A stretch of 64,000 bases of DNA, taken from NCBI GenBank assembly GCA_963705425.1, contig CAVPJO010000006.1, positions 60,599 to 124,598 of the forward strand, read 5' to 3'. The stretch is from an uncultured Chloroflexia bacterium (lineage in GTDB: Bacteria; Chloroflexota; Limnocylindria; Limnocylindrales; CSP1-4). Shown here in pieces: positions 50,586 to 63,425 of this stretch. How positions within the stretch are numbered: the first letter of the stretch is position 1; the number at the start of each line of letters is the position of its first letter. The translations under genes were made by a program, and so were the position numbers. The notes beneath the pieces are model-generated. The model was not told the DNA's origin. It saw nothing but the letters and a program-made list of their open reading frames with translations, and made no database searches.

Positions 50586-50873
50586 AGTGAGGAGTGACGT
50601 CCCGAGTCGGCCGTCAACGGCAACCTGCGGTTCCACATCGAGTCAGCGAACACACCGCGATGATCACGCTTGCCCCAACAGCCAGGACAGGTACGCGGAC
50701 TCGGGCCCAGCAGGGTCGCAGCTTCCCGCCGCCGCCCATGTGTTGCGATCAGGTGTAGTCCAATCGGGCCATGGGCCCGTACCAGCGATCCGGTGCCCGA
50801 TGTGGTCGAGAGCGGTAGCGTCCCCACTAGGCCTACGGCCCATGCGCGAAAGTCATGCATTTGGGGGTACTTG

Positions 50874-51953
50874 GTGTTCTACAGCAGACGAATCCGACTC
50901 ACACTGATGGCGACGATGGCGGCAGTGCTCGCGGTGGGCACCATGGGCGCAGCCGGCGCTGAGCCTGAGGAAGGCTCCGAGCTCCACTTCCTGAACTGGG
51001 AGGAGTACGTCGACCCGCAAGTCGTCGAGGACTTCGAAGCGGAGTTCGGCATCGACGTCATCATCGACTTCTTCTCAGACGAGAACGAGCTTGTGTCGGT
51101 CATCCAGGCTGACACGTCGCGATACGATCTCTTCACTACCTCTGACGCGACGCTCCACGAGATGATCGTGCAGCGGCTCGTCGCTGAGCTGGACCTCGAC
51201 AACATCCCGAACCTGGTCAACGTGGATCCGCGCTACCTCGATCTGCCCAACGATCCCGGCAGCAAGCACAGTGTGCCCTACGACTGGGGCACGACAGGGC
51301 TCGTCTACAACACCGACTGCATCCAGCCCGAAGAGGAATCCTGGAGCCTGCTGATGGACCCGCGTGTTCGCGGACGAATCGGCATGGACACGGACTTTCA
51401 GGTGGTCCTGGGAAGCGCCTTGAAGAGCCTGGGCTACCCGCTCAACTCGGGTGATCCGGCGCAGATCGAGGAGGCGGTGGATCGCTTGATGGAGTTGAAG
51501 TTGGATCAGGGCATGGAGTTCATCGTCTGGAACGACATGCTCGATCGGGTCACTGCGGGCGATCTGTGTGTGGGGCTCGCGTTCAACGGTGACGCGGCCG
51601 TCTACATGGATGAGTACGACAACCTTGGATACTTCGTGCCCACTGAGGGGTCGGATTTCTACCTCGACGTCCTGGCCATCCCTCGCGATGCTCCGAACAA
51701 GGCCGCTGCAGAGTCGTTCATCGACTATCTGCTCAGGCCGGAGGTGCATGCCGCGAACAACGAGTACACGGGCTACGCCGTCCCCAATCGGGCGTCCATC
51801 GAGGAGGGGTACGTCAGCGCAGAGATACTGGCTGACCCCGTCATCTATCCGGACACTGCCGGTCTCGAAGCGTGGATGCCCTTTGCCGCGGACTCTGACC
51901 GTCTGGGTCTCTGGAACGAGGCCTGGTCCAGATTCGTCCTGGCGACCAGCTAG
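50874..51953 (+). CDS. Periplasmic polyamine-binding protein, PotD/PotF/NspS-like (orphan SBP; alternative start 50907)
   Basis: Signal peptide RRIRLTLMATMAAVLAVGTMGAAGA. PotD-like blocks (LHFLNWEEYVDPQVVEDFEAEFGI, VPYDWGTTGLVYN, DFYLDVLAIPRDAPNKAAAESFIDYLLRPEV). Confidence 0.75.
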   Translation: MFYSRRIRLTLMATMAAVLAVGTMGAAGAEPEEGSELHFLNWEEYVDPQVVEDFEAEFGIDVIIDFFSDENELVSVIQADTSRYDLFTTSDATLHEMIVQRLVAELDLDNIPNLVNVDPRYLDLPNDPGSKHSVPYDWGTTGLVYNTDCIQPEEESWSLLMDPRVRGRIGMDTDFQVVLGSALKSLGYPLNSGDPAQIEEAVDRLMELKLDQGMEFIVWNDMLDRVTAGDLCVGLAFNGDAAVYMDEYDNLGYFVPTEGSDFYLDVLAIPRDAPNKAAAESFIDYLLRPEVHAANNEYTGYAVPNRASIEEGYVSAEILADPVIYPDTAGLEAWMPFAADSDRLGLWNEAWSRFVLATS

Positions 51954-51973: not shown

Positions 51974-54445
51974 GTGTCGCCGTTTCGATCGTCGCTTCGC
52001 CGCATCGTCCTTGGAGGCAGCTTCCGAGGACGATTCGGCCGCGCCTCAGTGCTCACCGCACTGGCACCCCTGCTGGCGCTGGCCCTGGTCTTCGTGACGT
52101 CGGCGCGAACCGATCTCGAAGGCGTGGCCAGAGAAAACCTGGCGAACCAGGCGCGCCTCCAGGCGACTGCGGTGGACAGCGTCCTCAAGAACGCAAGCGA
52201 GGCCGTGGGGGTGCTGGCGGCCAATCCCATCCTCCGCGATGAGGATGCGGAACCGGAACAGATCCGTCAGCAGCTCGACGCCTATAGCCAGTTCGACGAG
52301 ATCGTGCTCTTGCACCCGGCCGGAGTGGTCATCGAGGCTACGTCGTATCGCTTCTCCGGCCGTTGGGATGCGAACGCCGCCTTCCGTGGCGCGATGGCGG
52401 GGCGACAGGTCATGACACCGCCGCTCTTCTATTCCGATCCAGATCGACTCGTCGTTGAGCACGCCGCTCCGGTCATCAGAGACGGTGACGTCGTGGCCGT
52501 GGTCGTGGGTACCATGAACATGGATCGCGTTTGGCAGGCCCTCGACGACGTCACCATCGGGCGGTCCGGCTACTTCGCTGCATTCGACCAGCATGGCAAT
52601 GTCATCGCACACCCGGACAAGTCGCTGGTCCTCCGGAAGTTGGAGGGCTTCCCGTCCTCGAGCGATGGCTCGAGCGAGACTCCCGTTCGATACGTTCAGC
52701 CCGATGGAACGGCCCAGGTCGGCTACAGCGTGACCGTCCCATCCTCCGGGTGGCGCGTGGCTGCGCTCGAGCCGGAGGACGAGGCCTACGCTATCGCAGA
52801 TACGGCGGTGTCCAGGGTCTGGCTCGTGGCCATCGTGGCCCTGTTGATCGCGCTCGGCACGGTGCTCGTCGTGTCCCGCGCGGTCTCCAAGCCGATGGAG
52901 ACGGTGAACATGGCCATGCGCAGCATCGCCGACGGCCACCTGGAGCAGCGGGTCCGACCGGCAGGACTCGAAGAGATCGACCGGCTGGCGGGCTCGTTCA
53001 ACGCGATGGCCGCCGAGCTGGAGGAGCGCAGCGCTCTGCTGGATGCGGAGATGGCCGAGCGCGACCGCGCCGAGCAGCGCATCAAGTACCAGGCCTATCA
53101 CGACCCCTTGACCGGTCTGCCCAACCGGATGCTACTCAAGGATCGCCTGGACCTGGCCCAGGCGGATGCGCGTCGAAGCGGCGAAGCGTTGGCCCTGATG
53201 TTCCTCGACCTGGATCGCTTCAAGCTGGTCAACGATTCGATGGGTCACACGTTCGGCGACGAGCTGCTCTTGAGTGTCGCCGATCGGATCACCAGCGAGC
53301 TGCGGGAGGGTGATTCGGTGGCCCGTGTGGGTGGCGACGAATACGTCCTGTTGCTGCCGCGCGTGTCGGGCCCGGAAGAGGCCCTCGCGGCTGCTCACCG
53401 GGTCGTCGAGAGTCTGCGCGTGCCCTGGGAGGTGGACGGCAGGGAGTTCCACCTCACGGCCAGTATCGGGATCGCGTTGTACCCCGGTGACGGGGTCGAT
53501 GCCGAGTCGCTGATGCGGAACGCCGACACCGCCATGTATCAGGCCAAGGAAGAGGGGCGGGACCGCATCCGGGTCTTCCGAGCCGAGATGGACGAGAGCG
53601 TCCAGCAACGGGTGAGGCTCGAGCAGGACCTGCGCCTCGCGCTGCAGCTGGAGCAGTTCGTGCTCCACTACCAGCCCCTGGTCCATTCCGATACGGGTCG
53701 CGTCACCGGCATGGAAGCGCTGCTGCGCTGGGACTGTCCCAAGCGTGGACTCGTGCCCCCGGACAGGTTCATCTCCCTCGCCGAAGAGACCGGTCTCATC
53801 TGGGAACTCGGCCGCTGGGTGCTCAGGACGGCCTGCGCCCAGGTCCAGGCCTGGACCGCATCCGGGCAGATCGATAGCTTGTCGGTGTCTGTGAATGTCT
53901 CGGCTCGGCAGTTCCATGACATGGGCATCGTCGACGAGGTCCAAAGCGCCCTGGCCGAGACGGGCCTGCCTCCAGGCCAACTCGAGCTCGAGATCACCGA
54001 GAGCACCGCGATGCGCGACGTCGAGCACAGCATACGAACGCTCACCCGGCTCAGGGAGATGGGTGTGCGCGTGTCGATCGACGACTTCGGTACCGGCTAC
54101 TCCTCGCTCTCATACCTCAAACGGTTCCCGGTCGACATCGTCAAGATCGACCGCTCATTCGTGATGGACATCTCCCACGACCCCGATGATGCCGCCATCG
54201 TGGCCGCCATCATCGCCCTGGCCAGGAGCCTCAAGATGGAAACCGTGGCCGAAGGGGTCGAAACGGACGAACAACTCGCATTCCTGCAGGCGCACGGTTG
54301 CCCGTCATTCCAGGGGTTCCTCTTCAGCAAGGCACTGCCCCCAGCGGAACTGGTTCGACTGCTGGCCGACGGCGCATTCCGGGAATCCGAGCCGCGCGAC
54401 ACGACGATGCCAGCGCTCCGGCGGCAGCTCGCGCTCAGCCAGTAG
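51974..54445 (+). CDS. Membrane-bound sensory GGDEF-EAL protein (periplasmic Cache-like domain, HAMP, diguanylate cyclase and phosphodiesterase domains), MbaA-like
   Basis: TM helix, an about 250-aa periplasmic domain and a second TM helix. HAMP. RVGGDEYVLLL (GGDEY variant). EAL domain with GMEALLRW, DDFGTGYSSL and KIDRSFV. 823 aa, intact. Confidence 0.9.
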   Translation: MSPFRSSLRRIVLGGSFRGRFGRASVLTALAPLLALALVFVTSARTDLEGVARENLANQARLQATAVDSVLKNASEAVGVLAANPILRDEDAEPEQIRQQLDAYSQFDEIVLLHPAGVVIEATSYRFSGRWDANAAFRGAMAGRQVMTPPLFYSDPDRLVVEHAAPVIRDGDVVAVVVGTMNMDRVWQALDDVTIGRSGYFAAFDQHGNVIAHPDKSLVLRKLEGFPSSSDGSSETPVRYVQPDGTAQVGYSVTVPSSGWRVAALEPEDEAYAIADTAVSRVWLVAIVALLIALGTVLVVSRAVSKPMETVNMAMRSIADGHLEQRVRPAGLEEIDRLAGSFNAMAAELEERSALLDAEMAERDRAEQRIKYQAYHDPLTGLPNRMLLKDRLDLAQADARRSGEALALMFLDLDRFKLVNDSMGHTFGDELLLSVADRITSELREGDSVARVGGDEYVLLLPRVSGPEEALAAAHRVVESLRVPWEVDGREFHLTASIGIALYPGDGVDAESLMRNADTAMYQAKEEGRDRIRVFRAEMDESVQQRVRLEQDLRLALQLEQFVLHYQPLVHSDTGRVTGMEALLRWDCPKRGLVPPDRFISLAEETGLIWELGRWVLRTACAQVQAWTASGQIDSLSVSVNVSARQFHDMGIVDEVQSALAETGLPPGQLELEITESTAMRDVEHSIRTLTRLREMGVRVSIDDFGTGYSSLSYLKRFPVDIVKIDRSFVMDISHDPDDAAIVAAIIALARSLKMETVAEGVETDEQLAFLQAHGCPSFQGFLFSKALPPAELVRLLADGAFRESEPRDTTMPALRRQLALSQ

Positions 54446-54449
54446 GGGC

Positions 54450-54830
54450 ACGGTACGCCGCCGCTAGCGGCGCGGGTCGAGCGCGGCCGGGATCTCCGCT
54501 GCGCCTGTCTCGCGACCCGTGGGTCGACCGCATCCGAAGAGGTCACCAAGGCCACATTCCTGCGTGCCCATCGGTCACTCGTCGGCCTTGATGGAGCCGC
54601 GACAGTCCGCCCGTGGCTCATGGACGTCACCGCGACGGTCGCGAAGACGCAACTCCGGCAGCCCCATGCCGACACATGCGGAGCGTGAGGCGTTGGCGGC
54701 AGCGTTTGACGGCCTGACCGACCGGGACCAGCGCATCATCGAGTCCCGCTACGGCTTCGACCTGACTCGCGACGAAGCTGCGGTTCGCATGGCCTCAAGA
54801 CCTGAGGGGCGTGGCTCCGGTCAGGGCTCG
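54450..54830 (+). pseudogene. Remnant of an ECF-type sigma-70 family factor (regions 2 and 4 in different frames)
   Basis: EEVTKATFLRAHRSLVGLDGAATVRPWLMDVTATVAKTQLR (region-2-like) in one frame. EREALAAAFDGLTDRDQRIIESRYGFDLTRDEAAVRMA (region-4 HTH) in another. Confidence 0.35.
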
Positions 54831-55216
54831 AGGGTGACCACCGTCCAGCCGGCCAGGCCGTCAGTCGGGCAGGAGCCCGATGTGGTGACGAGGATCCGCT
54901 CTCCAGCCTCAGCGGCCTCGCGGTAGGCGTCGATCTCGCTGAAGTCACATGGTGCGTAGACCGAGCTGTCGCGGAAACGCAGCCGATCCTGCCAGGAGTG
55001 GATGAGGTCCTTCTCGGTGGCCAGTGCGAACTCCGAGTAGCTCTGGTCGTCGATCCGGTCGAGCTCGCCGGGCACCTGCCGCCAGACCTCCCTCATGGGA
55101 AAGGAGCTGTCGACCACCACGAACACCCGCTCGGTGTCCCGTGACAGCGAGATGAGCACGGCGAGCGCCCCGAAGACGAGCAGCAGCCCGGCCAGGAAGA
55201 TAGCCAAGGGCTTCAA
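54821..55216 (-). CDS. Small N-terminally anchored membrane/secreted protein, last gene of the TelA/vWA operon
   Basis: MKPLAIFLAGLLLVFGALAVLISL anchor. Lies 5 nt downstream of the vWA gene. Confidence 0.5.
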   Translation of the reverse strand: MKPLAIFLAGLLLVFGALAVLISLSRDTERVFVVVDSSFPMREVWRQVPGELDRIDDQSYSEFALATEKDLIHSWQDRLRFRDSSVYAPCDFSEIDAYREAAEAGERILVTTSGSCPTDGLAGWTVVTLEP

Positions 55217-55221
55217 GCTGC

Positions 55222-56922
55222 CTAGACCCCGGCGTTGAAGAGCGACACGAGCTTGAACTCGACATCGCCCTCACTGGCATTGATGCTGGCCGCCTCCACC
55301 AGGGAAGCCAGCCGGCCAAGCTCGTCAAGGTCAGCCTCGAAGCCGACCGTGAACACCGGGATGCGCGCACCCGCGATGACCTCGTCGACATCCCCGAACT
55401 CGAGGCCCTCGTTGGTCTCGCCGTCGGTCAACACCACGAGCATGTACTTGCCGCTCGGGTCAGCCGCACGCTGCTCGATGAGCATGTCCAGGCCAAGCAC
55501 GATACCGTCGTACATGGCCGTTCCGCCGACCGGATCCATGTCCTCGACGGCAGCCGCGAAACGAGCCTGCTGGTTGAGGTCGAAGGTCGCGATATCGAGC
55601 ACCTTGCGCACGCTGTCGCTGAACTCGACCATGCCCACCGATGCTGCGGGGTTGATGAACTCGCGAGCCGAGCTCAGCGCGCCCTGCACGGCCACGATCC
55701 GGGAGCCGGCCATGGACCCGCTGGTGTCGGTCACGAAGACCGCGTAGACGGGCCGCCCCGCGTCCTTCTTGTCCTTCCACAGGCTCTGCGCTTCGATGAG
55801 CGTCTGCCCGGACGGGACAGACACATCCGAGACGAAGTCGGGCGGAGCGAAGCCGTACTCAGACGCCTTGTCCCGGAGCTCCTGGCCCTCGATGTGGGCA
55901 GCGAACGACTCCAGGGTCTCCCGCTCCCCCGGCGTCGCGCTGTCGAAGGCATACAGTGGGTTGTCGTGGCGGACCCCGAAGGGGATGAACTCGAAACCAG
56001 ATCGCAGTGAGTCGGTGTTGGCGAAGGTCTGCCATTCCATGACGAAGGCGTCGAGCGTGCCGTTGTCCTTCTCCACCGAGTCCCGCATCTGGATGGTGGT
56101 GAAGGCCACGAACGGCACCTGCTCCTGGAACGCCTGGAAGACGCTGGCCACGTCGGGCGCGACCAGGCGCGCTTCGTCACCCGCGGCGAAATCGTCGAGC
56201 ACGGTGAGCAGGAAGTTGAGCCCGGTCGAGGAAGCGAACGGGTCCGTGTAGCCCATCACCAGCTCGCCGGCGATGACTGCTTCGATGAGCGTCTTGGTGT
56301 CGAGCTCGCCGTACTTCTCGCGAAGCTGCTCCGCGGTCTCGTCCTTCATGACGATGCCGGCCACGTTGGGCACGGTCTGATCGGTCACGACGGACATGGG
56401 CCTGTGCACCTTGGCCATCTCGACCCAGAGGTGGTTGGAAGGGCTGAAGCCGGCGGGCACGTTGTCGCCCGCGGCGATGAACTGGTAGCCCGTGCCCGAA
56501 GCGATCTTGCGGATGGCGACCTTGGCGTCGCGCCCATCGGCCAGCTTCTGGTTCGAGGCGTTGAAGGATTCGGCAGCCTCGACCATCCAGCCATCGATGC
56601 CGGAACCGGACTTCTCGGTGGAGGCGAAGATCTCAGCCACGACCTGGTCGGAGCGCGGCTGCGGATCGACCACGAGCGCGAACTGGCTGATGTCGGGGAG
56701 CGTATCGGCGAGCACCTTCTGCGGCGGCGCCACGCTGGCCTTGCGGGTGACCGGCGCATCGAACCAGCCGATGTCAGCAGCCAGCTCGCTGATGCTCTGC
56801 TCCGCCGAGGCTTGGTCGAGCGGCTCGGTGTCGCCATCGAGATCACCGCTGCAGGCTGTGACCGCCAAAGCGAGCGCCACCAGGGCCGCGATGAGGAGCT
56901 TCGGTCGCGTGTTGTCTGTCAT
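55222..56922 (-). CDS. Lipoprotein with C-terminal von Willebrand factor A (vWA) domain
   Basis: Lipobox LALAVTAC|SG. C-terminal vWA with VYAVFVTDTSGSMAGSR (DxSxS MIDAS), LVVLTDGETNEG and IPVFTVGF. 566 aa. Confidence 0.8.
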   Translation of the reverse strand: MTDNTRPKLLIAALVALALAVTACSGDLDGDTEPLDQASAEQSISELAADIGWFDAPVTRKASVAPPQKVLADTLPDISQFALVVDPQPRSDQVVAEIFASTEKSGSGIDGWMVEAAESFNASNQKLADGRDAKVAIRKIASGTGYQFIAAGDNVPAGFSPSNHLWVEMAKVHRPMSVVTDQTVPNVAGIVMKDETAEQLREKYGELDTKTLIEAVIAGELVMGYTDPFASSTGLNFLLTVLDDFAAGDEARLVAPDVASVFQAFQEQVPFVAFTTIQMRDSVEKDNGTLDAFVMEWQTFANTDSLRSGFEFIPFGVRHDNPLYAFDSATPGERETLESFAAHIEGQELRDKASEYGFAPPDFVSDVSVPSGQTLIEAQSLWKDKKDAGRPVYAVFVTDTSGSMAGSRIVAVQGALSSAREFINPAASVGMVEFSDSVRKVLDIATFDLNQQARFAAAVEDMDPVGGTAMYDGIVLGLDMLIEQRAADPSGKYMLVVLTDGETNEGLEFGDVDEVIAGARIPVFTVGFEADLDELGRLASLVEAASINASEGDVEFKLVSLFNAGV

Positions 56923-56951
56923 GACGCGTTCCCCATTGGTGCGGGTCTGAT

Positions 56952-58154
56952 TCAGGCGTCCCTCTCGACATCGAGCGAGCCGACCGCTGCCGTGCCGCGC
57001 TCGTGCGTCTCGATGGCCTTCTCGGCCTCGGTCGTGAGCTGGTCCAGTTCGACGATGCTGTGCGCCATCTGGGGCAGGGCCTCGCGGCGGTAGCGTGAGA
57101 TCTCATCGAGGGCGATGTTGATGTCACCGAAGGCTGACTTGAGAGCTTCCATGTCCAGCATCGTGCTCGCGGCCTGTTGGTGGATCTGGGTGCCCTGCGT
57201 CTTGAGGCGCTCGGCCGTGCCGGCGATGAGGTCGGATGTGGTGCGGTTGAGCGCCTCGACCTTGTCGAGGACGACCTTCTGATGGGCCACGGCCATGGCC
57301 ACCGCGACGGCGATCTGGAGGGCGCTGATGGTCACGTCCACGGCGCGGTCCACGCCGCGCACGAGCTCGCGGTTGTTGCGGATGATCAGCGCGGTCGCAA
57401 GCACGCCTTGCTGGTTCACGGCCAGCTGCTGCTGCAGGTCCATGGTGCGCTGGCGCAGGATGAAGACGAGCTCCTCCTCGATGAAGGCACGTCGCGGATC
57501 ACCCGGCTCGATCTCCTCGTCGAGCTTGGCGTTGATGGCCGCATCGAGGGCCTGCGCGAGGGCCACCTGCTCAGACAGCGTCAGCGTCAGCTCACGCATG
57601 TTCTTCTGGTCCTCGTTGAGGGTCACGTTGTCGCGCTTGAGTTGATCACGCCCGCTCTCGAGCGAACGGATGATGGCGTCGATGACGCCTTGCGACGTCT
57701 CGAACTGCATGAAGTAGCGCTGCAGTGGCGTGCCCAGGCCCGGGATCATGCGCAGCGTGCGGTTGAACCAGCCCGGCTCGAGATCGAGCGAGGTGGGGTC
57801 CAGCTTCTCGACCTCGATGCGCAGATCAGCCAGGGACTTGGCGACCGGGCCTCCCTCTTCGGTCTCGCGCGAAAGGTCTCGCAAGGGCGCCTGCAGCATG
57901 CGGCTACGACTGGCCGCGCGCCGCTGCAGGTCGCGACCCATGCCCTCGACCGCGTCGATGCTGGTGACCCTGGCGTCCTGGTCAGCGGGGTCCACGGCGA
58001 CGAGCTGGGCGGCATACTCAGCCGCCCGCTGCTGCAGCTTCTGGTCGATGGTCGGCTCGACCACGACCACCTCGGCCTTGGTCTCCTCGACGTTCAGATC
58101 GAGCTTCAGTACGGGGCTCTCGTCCCGGCCCGCGGATCCGGTTTGGCTCGTCAT
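56952..58154 (-). CDS. TelA/YaaN-like toxic-anion-resistance family protein (all-helical, about 400 aa)
   Basis: Size, helical repeat composition, a C-terminal YRREALPQM-type block and linkage to a 2TM XpaC-like gene resemble the TelA/KlaA family. Assigned from family resemblance, not a motif search. Confidence 0.6.
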   Translation of the reverse strand: MTSQTGSAGRDESPVLKLDLNVEETKAEVVVVEPTIDQKLQQRAAEYAAQLVAVDPADQDARVTSIDAVEGMGRDLQRRAASRSRMLQAPLRDLSRETEEGGPVAKSLADLRIEVEKLDPTSLDLEPGWFNRTLRMIPGLGTPLQRYFMQFETSQGVIDAIIRSLESGRDQLKRDNVTLNEDQKNMRELTLTLSEQVALAQALDAAINAKLDEEIEPGDPRRAFIEEELVFILRQRTMDLQQQLAVNQQGVLATALIIRNNRELVRGVDRAVDVTISALQIAVAVAMAVAHQKVVLDKVEALNRTTSDLIAGTAERLKTQGTQIHQQAASTMLDMEALKSAFGDINIALDEISRYRREALPQMAHSIVELDQLTTEAEKAIETHERGTAAVGSLDVERDA

Positions 58155-58207
58155 CTATGCACTCCCTTTGGCTCGCTGACTGGCAACAGCAGCGACGTCT
58201 CCTGATA

Positions 58208-58962
58208 TCAGGTGGTGGCGTATCGGCTGGCCCGATCGGCCAGCTCTTCGAGTGCTTCCATGGCCGCCTCGGCATCTCGCGGGGTCAAGCCGATGGGTGC
58301 GTCCGCGAGGGCGGTCGAGGTGCGGTCGAGCAAGGTCATGGCCGATTCGTTCTGGGCCAGCAGGTAGGTGACCTTAGCCTGTTGTGTGGCCGCCAATGCG
58401 CGGCGATCCTGCAGCGACTCGATCTCTGCCTGCGTGGAGTCACCGGCCTCGCCCTTGAGCTCGGCCAACCTGGCGTCGATGTAGTCGGGGTCGATGGTGC
58501 TGACGCTGCCCATGGCCACCGCGACCTCCCGCAGGTTGCTGATGACCGCAAGGTAGACCTGCTGGGCGGTCGACTGGTAGCGCGCATAGGTCAACTCGCC
58601 GGTCTTGAGGCGCCGGTCGAGCATGGCCGACAGGTTTTCACGCTTCACCGTGATGGCCTGTAGCTGGTGGGCCGGACGCGGGTCGTCGAGTCGCTCCAAC
58701 TCGTCACGGAGCAGGCGCAAGTCCGTGTCGCTCACCTCGGGCAGGGTCGGTGCCTTGAACTGCAGTCGCCTGAGCGTTCCGGTCGCAGCAAGCAAGAGCG
58801 GCCAGGCGACGACGGCGATGATGCCGACCACGACGACCACGACGGCCAGCACCGTCGGCGGCTGCATGAGCATCAGGATCGCAGCCACGAGCACCACCAC
58901 GGCACCGATCGCGATCCAGGAGGGCGGGTAGCTCATGACCGCCTGCCACCAACTCTTCATGC
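58208..58962 (-). CDS. XpaC-like 2-TM protein with cytoplasmic coiled-coil domain, first gene of the operon
   Basis: MKSWWQAV..., two TM helices (IAIGAVVVLVAAILMLM and VLAVVVVVVGIIAVVAWPLLLAA), then a helical domain. Lies 53 nt upstream of the TelA-like gene. Confidence 0.5.
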
Positions 58963-59191
58963 CATCGAACCTCCAGCCTTGATGTGGCCCGCGGAGTATC
59001 CATGATGACTGTCGGCGGCAACGACCGGTAGTCGCAAGAGCCATCCGGCCCACGGGCCGAGAGCGGGGCGAGGAGTCGGGCCAGGGGCCGGGCGCAGACC
59101 ATGTGCTGGCCGTGCGCCCCGGGCTGAACGGCCCCCGACGAGGGTCTGATCGAACGTTCCGAGCGCGCCCGACCAGCTCTAGGCTGGCGGT

Positions 59192-60295
59192 ATGAAACGC
59201 GTAGTGCTGCACTTGACATTGCTTGCGATCATCGTCGCGGCCATGGTCATCGGCATCGCGGCCGGCCTGGCACGCCTGGGCATCGAGGTGCCCACGGCGG
59301 CCATGGAGCGCGCCCTGGACCACGGCCCCATCCTCGTGGCCGGCGTCTTCGGCACGCTCATCTCACTGGAACGCGCAGTGGCCATGCGTACTGTCATGAC
59401 GCGCGGCTGGACGTGGGCTGACGCAGCCCCGGTGCTCGGTGGCGCCGGCACCATCGTGCTGCTGATCGATGGCGCCACCGTGCCCGCGATGGCCTTGCTG
59501 ACCGCCGGCGCAGCCGTCCTGGTCGGGGTCAACCTCGAGATGCTGCGACGCCATCCCACGCTGGATGTGCTGACCATGGCCATCGGCGCAGGCTTCCTGC
59601 TGCTGGCCGACGCGGCCTGGCTGGCCGCGCGCCCGGTGCCCTTCCTGACGCCGTGGTGGATGGCCTTCCTGGTGCTGACCATCACTGGCGAGCGACTGGA
59701 ACTGGCCCGGTTGCGCGTGCAGGGCCGCTTCGCCCGGGCCTCGTTCGCGGTCGCAGCCGCGGTCTACATCGGTGCGCTGCTGTCCATGACCGCCGATGTC
59801 GCGCTGGGCGTCCGCCTGTCCGGCATCGGCATGGTCGCGCTCACGGCCTGGTTGCTGCGCTTCGACATCGCCTGGCTGACCATCCGGCGCCCGGGACTGC
59901 CACGCTTCGTGGCTGCTTGCCTGCTGGCCGGCTACGCCTGGCTGGGAGTGGCCGGGCTCATCGCGGTCATGAACGAGCAGATCTGGGCCGGCTTCAGCTA
60001 CGACGCCTACCTGCACGCCGTGCTGCTCGGCTTCGTGTTCTCGATGGTCTTCGGCCACGCACCCATCATCTTTCCGGCCATCCTGGAGCGGCCCATCAGC
60101 TTCCACCCCATCGCCTGGCTGCCACTGGTTCTGCTCCACGTCGCGGTCGCGGCACGCATCCTTGGCGACGTGGCCATGAACCAGGCGCTGCGACAGGGCG
60201 CGGGCCTGCTGACCGGAGTCGCTATCGCCGCCTACGGCGTGGTCATCGTCGTCGGCCTCAGCGGGGGTCGTGGATCGCGCAGCGGCGGCGGATAG
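59192..60295 (+). CDS. Polytopic integral membrane protein of unknown function (10-12 TM, conserved His residues)
   Basis: 367-aa intact ORF. Hydrophobic helices throughout. FSMVFGHAPIIFPAIL block. Confidence 0.55.
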   Translation: MKRVVLHLTLLAIIVAAMVIGIAAGLARLGIEVPTAAMERALDHGPILVAGVFGTLISLERAVAMRTVMTRGWTWADAAPVLGGAGTIVLLIDGATVPAMALLTAGAAVLVGVNLEMLRRHPTLDVLTMAIGAGFLLLADAAWLAARPVPFLTPWWMAFLVLTITGERLELARLRVQGRFARASFAVAAAVYIGALLSMTADVALGVRLSGIGMVALTAWLLRFDIAWLTIRRPGLPRFVAACLLAGYAWLGVAGLIAVMNEQIWAGFSYDAYLHAVLLGFVFSMVFGHAPIIFPAILERPISFHPIAWLPLVLLHVAVAARILGDVAMNQALRQGAGLLTGVAIAAYGVVIVVGLSGGRGSRSGGG

Positions 60296-60406: not shown

Positions 60407-60883
60407 ATGACTGACACTACGCGAGCCCGGGGCCTTGAGATCACGGAGCTCATGGGCGTGTGGTTCTCGTCGCTCGGCGTGCCACGGTCGACCGGGCAGA
60501 TCTTCGGCTACCTCATGGGCTGCGATCCGGCCGAGCAGTCGGCGGGCGAGATCGCCGCGGGCACCGGTATGAGCCGTGCCTCGGTCAGCGCGGGGGCACG
60601 CATGCTCGTGCAGTTGAAGGCCATCGAAGAGCGACACCGCGTCGGTGACCGCAAGACCTACTACCGACTGCGGTCCGGCTGGTGGGTCCAGGCGACCATG
60701 ACCAAGTTATCGGGTTTCGATCGGCTGGCCGACGAGGCCAGACGTATCAAGGCCGCCGGCAGCGTGACCCGCACCGACGGCCTTGACGAGCTCATCGCGT
60801 TCGCCGAGTTCTGGCATGAGGAGTTGCCCGGGCTGGCTGAGCGCTGGGAACGGCGACGGAAGGCACTGAGTGAGGAAGCATGA
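60407..60883 (+). CDS. MarR/GbsR-type winged-helix transcriptional regulator
   Basis: GQIFGYLMGCDPAEQSAGEIAAGTGMSRASVSAGARMLVQLKAIEE HTH block. Stop overlaps the start of the ABC ATPase gene. Confidence 0.65.
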   Translation: MTDTTRARGLEITELMGVWFSSLGVPRSTGQIFGYLMGCDPAEQSAGEIAAGTGMSRASVSAGARMLVQLKAIEERHRVGDRKTYYRLRSGWWVQATMTKLSGFDRLADEARRIKAAGSVTRTDGLDELIAFAEFWHEELPGLAERWERRRKALSEEA

Positions 60884-61797
60884 CCACGAACGACGGAGCA
60901 GCCCCCATCAAGACGGAAGGGCTGACCAAGCACTACAAGGACGTCAAGGCGCTCGTCGACCTGGACCTTGAGGTCCAGCGTGGCGAGGTCTTCGGGTTCC
61001 TGGGACCCAACGGTGCCGGCAAGACGACGACCATCCGCAGCCTGCTGCACTTCATCTTCCCGACCGCGGGCTCAGCCACGGTGCTGGGACTGGACGTCGC
61101 CACCAATGCCGTCGAGATCCGCAGCCGCGTGGCCTACATGCCCTCGGAGTACTCGCTGTACCCGAAGCTCACGGGGGCCGAGAACATCACCTACCTGGCC
61201 AACCTGCGCGGCGGCGTGGACCTCGATGTCGTGAGCTCGCTGGCCGAACGCTTGGACGTCGACCTGACCCGCAAGGTCAGTGACCTCTCCACGGGCAACA
61301 AGCAGAAGGTCGGGCTCATCCAGGCCTTCATGAATCAGTCGGAGCTGATCATCCTCGACGAGCCCAGCACCGGCCTCGACCCGCTGATGCAGCAGGAGCT
61401 GCAGACCATGATCCGCGAGGTCCGCAAGGATGGACGCACGGTCTTCCTGTCCAGCCATAGCCTGGCTGAGGTCGAGCGTGTCGCCGACCGAGTCGGCATC
61501 CTGCGCCACGGTCGCCTCGTGGTGGTCGAGCGCGTCGACGCCCTGAAGCGCAAGGCCATCCGGCGCATCGATCTCGAGTTCGACGAACCCGTCGACGCTG
61601 CCGTCTTCGAGTCGGTAGACGGCGTGCGCTCGGCCGCGGCGCGCGGCAACACGGTCGTGGTCTCGTTCGAGGGCTCGGTCAACGCGCTGCTGCGGACCGC
61701 TCTCGACCAGGACGTCGTCAACGTCAACAGCCGCGAGGCGGATCTCGAACAGATCTTCCTGGCCTACTACCACGGGAATGGCGACGATGTTGCGTAA
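60880..61797 (+). CDS. ABC transporter ATP-binding protein (ABC-2 exporter type)
   Basis: GFLGPNGAGKTTTIR (Walker A), LSTGNKQKVGLIQA (signature), LIILDEPSTGLD (Walker B) and SSHSL (H-loop). Confidence 0.9.
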   Translation: MTTNDGAAPIKTEGLTKHYKDVKALVDLDLEVQRGEVFGFLGPNGAGKTTTIRSLLHFIFPTAGSATVLGLDVATNAVEIRSRVAYMPSEYSLYPKLTGAENITYLANLRGGVDLDVVSSLAERLDVDLTRKVSDLSTGNKQKVGLIQAFMNQSELIILDEPSTGLDPLMQQELQTMIREVRKDGRTVFLSSHSLAEVERVADRVGILRHGRLVVVERVDALKRKAIRRIDLEFDEPVDAAVFESVDGVRSAAARGNTVVVSFEGSVNALLRTALDQDVVNVNSREADLEQIFLAYYHGNGDDVA

Positions 61798-62587
61798 CCA
61801 CCTGCTCGGGAGCGTCTTCTCCAAGACCATCCGCGACTGGCTGTTGTGGACGGTCATCGCGGTCATCGCGATGTGGGCGATCTCCGCGCTGTATATCGGC
61901 ATCATGGCTTCATCGGGCGACGCTTACGTGACCATGATGGACGACTTCCCCGAGGCCCTCGCCAGCGTCTACGGCATGAACGATGGCACGGCCGAAGGGC
62001 TGGCCATGAGCGGCATCTTCTTCCTCATCGGCCCACTCGTGCTGCTGACCTACGCAATCGGGCTGGGCTCCAGCGCCGCGGTCGGCGAGGAGGAGGCACG
62101 CAGCTTGCCCATCCTGCTCTCGAGCCCACTGCGCCGGCGCTCCATCCTCTTGGCCAAGACCGCTGTCGCGGCCATCGGTGTACTGGTCATCACGGCCCTG
62201 ACCTGGGTCGGGATCGTGGTCTTCGCGGCACTGGTGGGCATGGACCTCTCGGAGCAGAACGTCACGGGCGCGAGCATCCAGCTGCTGGGCATGGTCTTCC
62301 TGTTCGGCGCGCTGGCGCTGGGCCTCAGCGCCTGGCGCGGCTCATCCGCCCTGGGCATCGGCGTGGCCGCCGGTCTGGCCGTGCTCTCGTACTTCGTGAC
62401 CACGCTGCTGCCGGTCGTCGAGGAGCTGGCCGACATCGCCAGGCTGACACCCTGGTACCTGTTCAGCGGGGCTGACTCGCTGAGCCACGGCGTCGACCCG
62501 GTCCTGCTCGGCATCGCTGCCCTGATCGCCGCCGCGTTGTTCGGCCTGGGCGTCTACACGCTCGACCGCCGAGACCTGAAGGGATAG
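61778..62587 (+). CDS. ABC-2 family transporter permease
   Basis: 269-aa 6-TM ORF overlapping the ATPase gene by 20 nt. Confidence 0.75.
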   Translation: MATMLRNHLLGSVFSKTIRDWLLWTVIAVIAMWAISALYIGIMASSGDAYVTMMDDFPEALASVYGMNDGTAEGLAMSGIFFLIGPLVLLTYAIGLGSSAAVGEEEARSLPILLSSPLRRRSILLAKTAVAAIGVLVITALTWVGIVVFAALVGMDLSEQNVTGASIQLLGMVFLFGALALGLSAWRGSSALGIGVAAGLAVLSYFVTTLLPVVEELADIARLTPWYLFSGADSLSHGVDPVLLGIAALIAAALFGLGVYTLDRRDLKG

Positions 62588-62591
62588 CACC

Positions 62592-63425
62592 ATGACCACC
62601 ACCTCCCTCCCGGGTGTGCGCAGCTACCAGCGGTTCGCCATCACCAACAGCTTCACCAAGGCGGTCATGGACCGCATGCTGCTGGCCCTCATCGTGGGGC
62701 TCGGCGTGGGCGCCATGGGCTTGTCCATGGGCCCCATGTGGCTCGCCCTCAAAGACGTCATCGGGGAGATGCTGGACCAGTTCCCCGAGTCCATCATGGC
62801 CATCGCCGGTGGTGCCGACATGGCCGTCGCATCCGGCTGGTACACCGGGGAGATGTACTCCATCGTAGTGCCGTTCGCGGTGATGTTCGTGGCCGTCGCC
62901 TCAGCCGCCCGAGCCTTCGGCGGCGAGATGGAGAACGAGACCATCGGATTGGTGATGTCCACGCCCACGCGCCGCACCCGGCTGGCCGTCGACAAGGTCG
63001 TGGCCATGCTCGTCCACGTAGCCATCGCCTCCGGGCTCATCGGCCTGCTGGTCTGGATCGGCATCGTGGTCAGCGGCATCGACATCGGCATCGGCCATGT
63101 CTTTGCCATCAGCTTCATGGTGGCGCTGCTGTCGGTGTTCGTCGGCGGCATCGCCATGGTCGTCTCCATCGTCTCGGGTCGCGGCGTGCCGGCCATGCTC
63201 GTGGCCATGCTCGTGGCCATCGTCATGTACGCCTGGTCCAGCTTCGTGCCCATGGCCGATGCCATCGCCGACCTGGCCTGGATGTCGCCGTGGCACCACT
63301 TCATCGCCACCGACCCCATGGGCAGCGGCATCGATCTGGTCTCAGCGGCCATCCTGGCCATCCTGGCCATCCTGCCCCTGGTCGTGAGCGTGTACCTCTT
63401 CAAGCGGCGCGACATCGCCGCCTAG
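62592..63425 (+). CDS. ABC-2 family transporter permease (second)
   Basis: 277-aa 6-TM ORF, 4 nt after the previous permease. Confidence 0.75.
   Translation: MTTTSLPGVRSYQRFAITNSFTKAVMDRMLLALIVGLGVGAMGLSMGPMWLALKDVIGEMLDQFPESIMAIAGGADMAVASGWYTGEMYSIVVPFAVMFVAVASAARAFGGEMENETIGLVMSTPTRRTRLAVDKVVAMLVHVAIASGLIGLLVWIGIVVSGIDIGIGHVFAISFMVALLSVFVGGIAMVVSIVSGRGVPAMLVAMLVAIVMYAWSSFVPMADAIADLAWMSPWHHFIATDPMGSGIDLVSAAILAILAILPLVVSVYLFKRRDIAA

Follow-up and report, generated by a model that had tools for sequence, protein, structure and literature searches.

The window, by which we mean the whole 64,000-nt stretch of DNA that was analysed, carries a compact four-gene cassette in which a TelA-family protein is accompanied by a two-helix membrane protein, a predicted PBP-II-vWA lipoprotein, and a small membrane-anchored protein. 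Domain identities, predicted topologies, operon structure, and co-inheritance define these genes as a discrete, self-contained unit, which in our tentative view most likely builds one membrane-spanning complex leading from external sensing to TelA. The cassette thereby gives TelA a genetic link to a domain that binds ligands outside the cell and to one for metal-dependent protein interaction. All four open reading frames (ORFs) lie within 54821-58960 and were confirmed in the ORF listing of the window. The genes, in the order of transcription, and the parts of g3 are as follows.

58208-58960, minus strand: g1, 250 aa, ATG start at 58960 with GGAGG just before it
56952-58154, minus strand: g2, 400 aa, TelA family
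55222-56922, minus strand: g3, 566 aa, predicted lipoprotein with a PBP-II domain fused to a vWA domain
56851-56922, minus strand: predicted signal peptide of g3 with lipobox V-T-A-C24, a sequence pattern following a hydrophobic stretch
55768-56820, minus strand: N-terminal PBP-II-fold domain of g3, approximately residues 35-385, two-lobe fold
55276-55749, minus strand: C-terminal vWA domain of g3, approximately residues 392-549, MIDAS complete
54821-55216, minus strand: g4, 131 aa, TTG start

The first-pass annotation had described a tight minus-strand operon here, and both its ORFs and its coordinates agree with ours, apart from the start of g1, which it placed at 58962 and which we correct to the ATG at 58960. 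The gaps between g1/g2, g2/g3, and g3/g4, calculated from the ORF coordinates, are 53, 29, and 5 nt, and these short spacers, with the g3 stop codon 5 nt ahead of the g4 start, point to co-transcription of all four genes. The GC3 of g2, g3, and g4 is 0.89, the same as that of the other window genes, so that the cassette shows no compositional anomaly. Searches around the cassette for flanking repeats or mobile-element ends, at the locus for a riboswitch or other RNA family, and on the operon strand for a terminator all returned nothing. The neighbors of the cassette in the window are signaling and transport genes, with no defense island.

TelA has been known for approximately three decades as a determinant of tellurite, nisin, and envelope-stress responses, and we know of neither an assigned biochemical function nor an assigned input signal for it. 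The assignment of g2 to this family, already proposed for the 400-aa protein in the first pass, was borne out by a PF05816 match of 241.1 bits (E=2.3e-71; gathering cut-off, 30), covering residues 63-382 and profile positions 10-331 of 332. No signal peptide is present, a hydropathy scan revealed one hydrophobic helix at approximately residues 271-296, and a sequence search found no related solved structure. In Bacillus subtilis, sigma-W has xpaC-yaaN in its core regulon (PMC3498285); mutation of TelA in Listeria raises sensitivity to nisin and tellurite, as cited in PMC12791056; and XpaC/TelA influence daptomycin binding in Enterococcus faecium (PMC6811118).

The membrane protein immediately upstream of TelA had been called XpaC-like, a description that holds for its architecture and fails for its sequence. 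An N-terminal hairpin of two membrane helices (approximately residues 7-64, a single hydrophobic block in the hydropathy scan), flanked at both ends by basic residues and connected by a short Q/E-P-P loop (alignment A2), precedes a helical C-terminal domain of approximately 180 aa that is predicted to be cytoplasmic, and the gene shares an operon with TelA across a 53-nt gap, as XpaC does. Family-model scans, on the other hand, gave no XpaC match for g1 in Pfam at E<=0.1 and none at all in NCBIfam, nor did any of 66 diverse family members match the XpaC model at E<=0.01; indeed, no Pfam or NCBIfam family matched g1 or these 66 relatives, and identity with XpaC by sequence was rejected. The position of g1 is thus an analogy to XpaC rather than membership, and judging from these scans g1 appears to represent a separate, unnamed family adjoining TelA, comprising 562 homologs and, in a set clustered at 50% identity, 782 representatives. 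TelA also lies directly downstream of distant members of the family (L081-L086, L090). A sequence search yielded no solved structure for g1, with a weak LemA match for its family (E=0.015). A relationship of g1 to TelA as a paralog was discarded at an hhalign probability of 0.1%. A Bacillus record in the plasmid database contains a different TelA paralog, without XpaC upstream.

As the first pass had recognized, g3 combines a lipoprotein signal with a ligand-binding-type N-terminal domain and a vWA/MIDAS C-terminal domain, and lipobox, fold, and vWA match all agree with this reading. The lipobox pattern marks g3 as a probable lipoprotein: the hydropathy scan places a hydrophobic segment at residues 5-29, and Cys24 is kept in at least 90% of 21 homologs with the consensus xAAC. 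In the structure model, whose pLDDT of 74.7 is moderate with parts of the N-domain lower, the N-domain fold is nearest to sulfate-, thiamine-, phosphonate-, and iron-binding proteins. The N-domain of the window protein alone gave no SBP_bac_11 (PF13531) match at E<=1, and 6 of 21 close homologs did match (best E=4.6e-7). The vWA domain matches PF00092 above the cut-off, adopts the vWA fold, and carries the DxSxS...T...D motif as an invariant MIDAS (D399-x-S401-x-S403, T468, D500).

What had been noted simply as a small anchored protein, g4, is indeed anchored, through a membrane helix at its N-terminus (residues 2-25) whose small residues G16 and A19 are nearly invariant; the remaining approximately 100 aa form a miniature vWA-like alpha/beta domain in the predicted fold, which would make g4 a second vWA-fold protein and the core partner of g3. 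Its MIDAS-like motif is partial (D36-S-S38-F-P-M), and the invariant Cys90 and Cys116 suggest an extracytoplasmic disulfide; this cysteine pair and the long, anchor-type hydrophobic helix are the two features from which we infer its orientation in the membrane. Its likeness to the g3 vWA domain is confined to the fold level, and an origin by duplication of that domain was dismissed (hhalign probability, 0.1%). The database protein P0241 is identical in sequence to g4.

Comparison across genomes argued strongly for a single inherited unit. We fetched 80 genome and 80 metagenome loci via g3, of which 110 had enough flank on both sides, and the order g1-g2-g3-g4 on one strand was found in 101 of these (67 + 34). 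Another seven proceed directly from g1 to g3 without TelA, six of them with g4 next and the seventh (L067) ending before g4 could show, and two carry g3-g4 alone; g3+g4 is the invariant core of the cassette. The homolog scores of all four genes drop together with evolutionary distance, and in the nearest relatives the nucleotide similarity (74-78%) starts and stops at the cassette borders, with different flanking genes. A chance adjacency of four functionally unrelated genes is refuted by these data and has a negligible probability, since order and strand are kept in several phyla despite differing flanks. Either the lack of a TelA match or a neighborhood not conserved in related genomes had been named beforehand as a sign of such coincidence; neither was found, because the TelA match is clear and the neighborhood strongly conserved. 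The first pass had proposed a comparison across Actinobacteria, but the cassette is not specific to them: it has its closest relatives in metagenome-assembled genomes (MAGs) of Chloroflexota, labeled Chloroflexia/Limnocylindrales, and was further found in Acidimicrobiia and in MAGs labeled Alphaproteobacteria and Verrucomicrobiia. Clustering of flanking ORFs for a conserved fifth gene gave lineage-specific synteny only, in at most 31 of 80 loci.

In cyanobacterial plasmids, homologs of g3+g4 adjoin a CHAT protease, or a caspase-family protein with WD40, instead of TelA, and in other cases a serine protease with an SPFH protein and a Ser/Thr kinase. Since some variants lack TelA, it may be an accessory of the module and not its central output. 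A possible but rather doubtful extension of our reading is that g3+g4 constitutes a portable extracytoplasmic sensor, plugging via a two-helix membrane adaptor into interchangeable effectors at the cytoplasmic face, with TelA as one of several membrane-stress or cell-fate outputs and a common external ligand. The effector would then be TelA in the window and most relatives, and CHAT/caspase proteases or SPFH with a serine protease would take its place on the cyanobacterial plasmids. If g3+g4 does couple to all of these, it would be a general envelope-sensing module. The same neighborhoods could also be read as biological conflict, an anti-phage or cell-death switch in which g3/g4 would sense invader contact or envelope damage and TelA would be the membrane-altering effector. 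The protease neighbors fit this account, as do the toxin-antitoxin and TnpB genes near plasmid g3+g4 pairs, the appearance of the cassette as a separate unit amid unrelated genomic surroundings in different phyla, the historical tie of Ter and TelA genes to phage inhibition (as quoted in PMC12054061), and a weak resemblance of the g1 hairpin to the cyanobacterial TRADD-N-associated 2TM domain (PF20712, E=0.033). We nevertheless regard it as improbable: the 2TM similarities reach 14.8 bits, far under significance; PADLOC-DB v2 gave the four proteins two sub-significant matches (E=0.0064 and 0.072), each falling on an unrelated coiled-coil region; not one relative was found among 2.9 million viral contigs; and the window surrounds the cassette with the signaling and transport genes described above, at a GC3 as in the host genome.

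Larger TelA operons, recovered as L081-L084 and on the Vibrio plasmid pSEA2, hold like parts, namely a g1-like protein, TelA, SBP/OmpA and vWA proteins, and an SBP-vWA fusion. The TelA/g1 pair of these extended relatives has an ABC permease, an ABC ATPase, and several SBP-like genes around it, one of the latter being a PstS-like/OmpA fusion. This arrangement, along with the fold neighbors of the g3 N-domain and the SBP_bac_11 matches among its homologs, would suit solute or oxyanion uptake and homeostasis, with g3 as an orphan SBP for an ABC importer encoded elsewhere and TelA + g1 as accessory protection against a toxic analog; a PhoX phosphatase and an extracellular nuclease flank the Sphaerotilus variant, and PPK2 is close by in L084, which would fit as well. 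Such a role seems unlikely to us, because a permease and ATPase for the g3 PBP-II domain are found only in the extended relatives, being absent from the conserved cassette and not conserved beside it across approximately 160 loci, and because a fusion of SBP and MIDAS vWA with an obligatory mini-vWA partner is foreign to ordinary uptake systems. An ABC-2 transporter does lie upstream in the window; it is of the exporter type, and its association with the cassette is not conserved.

Two further features bear on the regulation of the cassette.

59138-59160, minus strand: tentative ECF-type promoter GGAAC-N15-CGT, approximately 200 nt upstream of g1
54515-54791, strand opposite to the cassette, convergent: ECF sigma remnant, with a region 2-like stretch (54515-54661) and a region 4-like stretch (54684-54791)

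The motif GGAAC-N15-CGT occurred upstream of g1 in 16 of 72 regions (71 related loci plus the present window, itself among the positives), compared with one occurrence on the opposite strand and approximately 1.5 in shuffles. The positives are confined to three lineages, and the motif is absent in the nine closest relatives; it may tentatively be taken as an ECF-type promoter of the cassette. A scan of the upstream region for sigma-70-type promoters found nothing. A degenerate ECF sigma remnant downstream had been reported in the first pass and is present, with regions 2 and 4 in different reading frames, the N-terminus missing, and region 4 scoring 17.7 bits against a cut-off of 24.1. Its interpretation as a decayed dedicated regulator is rejected, because the remnant lies on the opposite strand and is not conserved beside the cassette: none of the nine nearest relatives has it, and only 2 of 80 loci have an intact ECF sigma immediately after g4.

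The membrane-spanning complex that we prefer could operate as follows. Outside the cell, the g3 PBP domain would close on a small ligand, perhaps a small anion or polar metabolite, as guessed from its fold neighbors. Partner proteins are usually bound by vWA domains through an acidic residue that the MIDAS metal site clamps, and the proposed partner of g3 is g4, which nearly always follows it. Inside the cell, the g1 hairpin and cytoplasmic domain would hold or regulate TelA at the inner membrane face. A ligand or envelope state sensed by g3 would thus be relayed, by its contact with g4, to two elements in the membrane, the g4 helix and the g1 hairpin, and would alter TelA recruitment or activity, whereupon TelA might protect the membrane in the way known from Firmicutes, where it acts against nisin, tellurite, and daptomycin. 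Because the extracytoplasmic loop of g1 has only approximately 3-4 residues, coupling from g3/g4 to g1 would, speculatively, have to run via the membrane helices. The question of TelA input becomes tractable as a search for what the g3 PBP domain binds and for the g3-g4-g1-TelA contacts, and two unannotated protein families are defined, those of the TelA partner g1 and the mini-vWA anchor g4.

Several known systems resemble parts of the cassette. TerY/TerY-P of the ter clusters likewise links a vWA/MIDAS protein to tellurite-resistance-type genes; TerY is cytoplasmic and paired with a kinase and a PP2C phosphatase, whereas g3 is predicted to be a secreted lipoprotein and the cassette contains neither enzyme and has no PADLOC match. 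The plasmid RK2 genes KilA/TelA/TelB (klaA-klaB-klaC) combine TelA with a membrane protein in a small mobile cassette; our cassette has no evident KlaA/KlaC equivalents, and RK2 is not known to have PBP-vWA genes. BatA/BatB are also bacterial vWA proteins that are anchored in the membrane and come in pairs, and BatB (3ibs) is among the fold neighbors of both g3 and g4, but Bat operons also encode a MoxR ATPase and TPR proteins, both absent here, and are not known to contain TelA or a PBP-II domain. Anantharaman, Iyer and Aravind (Mol Biosyst, 2012) reportedly predicted TelA/TerB-centered membrane sensory complexes with PBP-II and OmpA domains, in which gene neighborhood likewise ties TelA to membrane proteins. 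The label of an uncharacterized envelope-stress system must therefore be narrowed, as TelA-PBP-II/OmpA complexes had reportedly already been predicted; what was found here is the compact four-gene form, without OmpA or ABC parts, with PBP-II and vWA in one lipoprotein, and with a dedicated mini-vWA anchor. The Firmicute XpaC-YaaN(TelA) pairs (B. subtilis xpaC-yaaN, Listeria lmo1966-lmo1967, and E. faecium xpaC-telA) likewise place a membrane protein directly upstream of TelA in one operon and are tied to envelope stress through the sigma-W regulon and nisin and daptomycin tolerance; as these sources describe them, they are two-gene units with no extracytoplasmic partners, to which the present cassette adds the PBP-II-vWA lipoprotein and the mini-vWA anchor (PMC3498285, PMC12791056, PMC6811118). 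Family-model scans detected no sequence relationship between g1 and Firmicute XpaC.

Related forms are carried by cultured organisms, on a plasmid of Sphaerotilus sulfidivorans, on Vibrio pSEA2-type plasmids, and on plasmids of Stanieria and Pseudanabaena. Many of the MAGs with the cassette are assigned to Ilumatobacter and Ilumatobacteraceae, which suggests that cultured members of these groups may carry the compact form.

The cassette consists of four minus-strand genes:

58208-58960, minus strand: ORF g1, a 250-aa protein with two transmembrane helices (2TM)
56952-58154, minus strand: ORF g2, a 400-aa TelA protein
55222-56922, minus strand: ORF g3, a 566-aa lipoprotein fusing a type II periplasmic-binding-protein fold (PBP-II) to a vWA domain with a MIDAS
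54821-55216, minus strand: ORF g4, a 131-aa anchored protein with a predicted mini-vWA fold and a TTG start

The ORF coordinates reproduced the spacers of 53, 29 and 5 nt (g1-g2, g2-g3 and g3-g4) reported in the first-pass annotation, which placed the g1 start at 58962, 2 bases off the actual ATG at 58960 with GGAGG just upstream. Purine-rich stretches lie upstream of the g2 and g3 starts, the TTG of g4 falls 5 nt past the g3 stop, and the g4 sequence is identical to one database protein. Together with a GC3 of 0.89 for g2, g3 and g4, on par with neighbouring genes, these ORFs, start signals and the exact match indicate that g1-g4 are real genes of native composition in an operon layout.

Our g3-anchored search revealed 178 relatives among 185,579 species-level genomes, to which metagenome contigs added at least 456 more. 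Gene content was counted in the 110 loci whose sequence extends far enough to either side.

Gene content of the informative loci (genome loci; metagenome loci)
g1-g2-g3-g4, same order and strand: 67; 34
g1-g3-g4, no TelA: 1 (L065); 4
g3-g4 only: 0; 2 (L149, L151)
g3 only: 0; 1 (L157)
all four genes present, ORF limits out of order: 1; 0

The cassette was intact in 101 of the 110 loci, and a merely coincidental adjacency of the four genes is extremely improbable because the comparative data exclude it. Three exceptions at contig ends were counted apart: L067, where g3 directly follows g1; a metagenome locus with g1-g3-g4 whose contig ends upstream; and L069, where downstream space is present and g4 is absent. 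Natural variants without TelA and with g3 directly after g1 comprised L065, L067, L161, L171, L173 and L175, while L149 and L151 lacked both g1 and TelA, the g3-g4 pair of L151 being followed by a methyl-accepting chemotaxis protein. TelA was shorter or more divergent in L045, L050, L056, L059 and L072.

The nearest cassette relatives occurred in MAGs labelled Chloroflexia or Limnocylindrales (75-84% protein identity), followed by Ilumatobacteraceae and other Acidimicrobiia (~62-65%) and by MAGs labelled Alphaproteobacteria, Kiloniellales and Verrucomicrobiia (~50-53%). At the nucleotide level, the nine nearest loci resembled the window (74-78%) from 54815-54845 to 58951-58973 and not beyond; no orthologues of the window's flanking proteins lay beside the cassette in other loci, and no conserved fifth gene was found in the cassette loci. 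These borders, unshared flanks and the lack of a fifth gene indicate that the cassette is a discrete, co-inherited unit set in varying genomic contexts.

The TelA-family assignment of g2 was confirmed by PF05816 (241 bits vs a cut-off of 30). The protein has no signal peptide, and its residues 271-296 (window ~57267-57344) form one strongly hydrophobic helix, VDVTISALQIAVAVAMAVAHQKVVL, which could serve as a membrane-association element. In g1, a two-helix hairpin with a 3-residue loop is followed by a helical domain of ~180 aa; the basic residues at both hairpin ends and the short loop predict that this domain is cytoplasmic, on the same side as TelA. The proposed XpaC likeness of g1 is limited to predicted architecture, as g1 matched no Pfam or NCBIfam family and 66 diverse members of its family matched neither XpaC nor any other Pfam family. 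The only sub-threshold Pfam matches of g1 were two-helix membrane domains, 8xMP (E=0.005) and CyanoTRADDas_TM (E=0.033). Profile comparison ruled out g1 as a TelA relative. An exhaustive profile search placed 782 cluster representatives in the g1 family, and TelA was the next gene in every distant member with a readable contig (L081-L086 and Vibrio L090), which makes the family a consistent TelA partner.

Plasmid-borne TelA homologues show the TelA/vWA/PBP theme again. A Sphaerotilus plasmid carries the order hypothetical-TelA-vWA-hypothetical, with a 551-aa vWA protein containing a PBP-like part, and a Nonomuraea record carries secreted protein-TelA-vWA-2TM protein. The Sphaerotilus sulfidivorans variant (L089, 2771-12520) is flanked by genes for the phosphatase PhoX and an extracellular nuclease of the ExeM/NucH type, and PPK2 lies near another relative (L084, 592-1464), a possible phosphate link. 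An extended operon is present on Vibrio plasmids of the pSEA2 type and on a number of contigs from metagenomes. It encodes SBP/OmpA proteins, a vWA protein of 265 aa, TelA and a g1-like protein, a further SBP, and an ABC permease with an ATPase; the metagenomic contigs L081-L083 add an SBP-vWA fusion. This content fits the TelA membrane complexes with PBP-II and OmpA domains that Anantharaman, Iyer and Aravind reportedly predicted in 2012. The ABC genes would also suit another reading, which we consider unlikely, in which g3 is an orphan binding protein serving solute uptake or oxyanion homeostasis.

Full-length g3 homologues without TelA (32-36% identity) were found on Pseudanabaena (L094, plasmid ABRG53c) and Stanieria (L095, L176) plasmids, each followed by an anchored protein of 113-125 aa; the two of these three small proteins that were tested both matched the g4 HMM (E=8e-6 and 1e-4). 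Beside these pairs lies a CHAT protease, a WD40-containing protein of the caspase family, or a serine protease accompanied by an SPFH/prohibitin protein. DnaJ and Ser/Thr kinase genes are also nearby, and L094 holds g3 in two tandem copies. The CHAT protein bears a two-helix hairpin and coiled coil C-terminal to its protease domain, and their weak likeness to g1 (14.8 bits) is a hint of resemblance. Such CHAT/caspase contexts, along with the patchy distribution of the cassette, would accommodate a conflict or cell-fate system, but neither PADLOC nor viral contigs gave support, leaving this a doubtful explanation. The TelA-less pairs with a g4-like partner and the variant loci point to a hierarchy in which g3+g4 are almost always present, g1 usually and TelA mostly.

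The analysis shows the domains, predicted topology and co-inheritance of g1-g4, and the best-supported reading, tentatively held, is that the products form a membrane-spanning complex. Outside the cell, the PBP domain of g3 would close on its ligand, a movement coupled to the MIDAS vWA domain, and g3 would touch g4. The g4 helix, in which the small residues G16 and A19 are nearly invariant, may pack against the g1 hairpin, and the g1 cytoplasmic domain would bind or regulate TelA, which would protect the membrane; we infer these contacts, the ligand and the signal direction. The parts of the cassette, and a linkage of TelA to PBP-II in general, have been described or predicted before. By contrast, the literature searched appears to contain no account of the four genes in this compact form, of a PBP-II-vWA fusion, of a mini-vWA anchor, of the still unnamed family of g1 or of g3+g4 as the core. 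What input TelA receives and what it does are long-standing questions, and the cassette gives a concrete way to approach them.

Regulation was considered from three features:

54515-54661, plus strand: sigma region-2-like stretch (RpoE-seeded iterated search, E=1.4e-13 in a small local database)
54684-54791, plus strand: sigma region-4-like stretch (Pfam match below threshold)
59138-59160, minus strand: ECF-promoter-like motif GGAAC-N15-17-CGT upstream of g1

The first two, out of frame with each other, are what is left of an ECF sigma gene with a frameshift and a truncated N-terminus; this pseudogene lies in the gap that separates g4 from the GGDEF-EAL gene. The degenerate sigma gene of the first-pass annotation therefore exists, but the final third of its ORF is the antisense of g4. 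Its proposed role as a dedicated regulator was not upheld: remnant and cassette are convergent, the remnant was not found beside the cassettes of the nearest relatives, and only in two Ilumatobacteraceae loci, L034 (9018-9755) and L048 (9055-9699), is g4 immediately followed by an intact, co-oriented ECF sigma gene, a frequency that by rough estimate is about that predicted from the density of such genes. The motif occurred in 16 of 72 scanned upstream regions (the window, L014, L026-L028, L035, L040, L042, L046, L052, L062, L070, L075, L076, L079 and L080), compared with 1 on the opposite strand and ~1.5 in shuffles; the cases fall in only three lineages, and none was found in the nine closest relatives. 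ECF-dependent expression is plausible on this basis and, if it holds, would echo the sigma-W control of B. subtilis xpaC-yaaN (PMC3498285).

A divergent 367-aa membrane protein (59192-60295) matched no family. Curiously, the vault partner PARP4 also contains a vWA domain, which parallels the link between TelA and vWA proteins. Suprenant et al. appear in the reference lists of PMC7916137 and PMC3762200. An exporter-type operon (60407-63425, plus strand), divergent from the cassette and unconserved with it, encodes a MarR/IclR-like regulator, whose gene overlaps the start of the following ABC ATPase gene, and two ABC-2 permeases. On the other side, a solute-binding protein SBP_bac_8 gene (50670-51953, plus strand) lies 20 nt upstream of a dCache-HAMP-GGDEF-EAL gene (51974-54445, plus strand), a pairing that suggests c-di-GMP signalling dependent on the binding protein.
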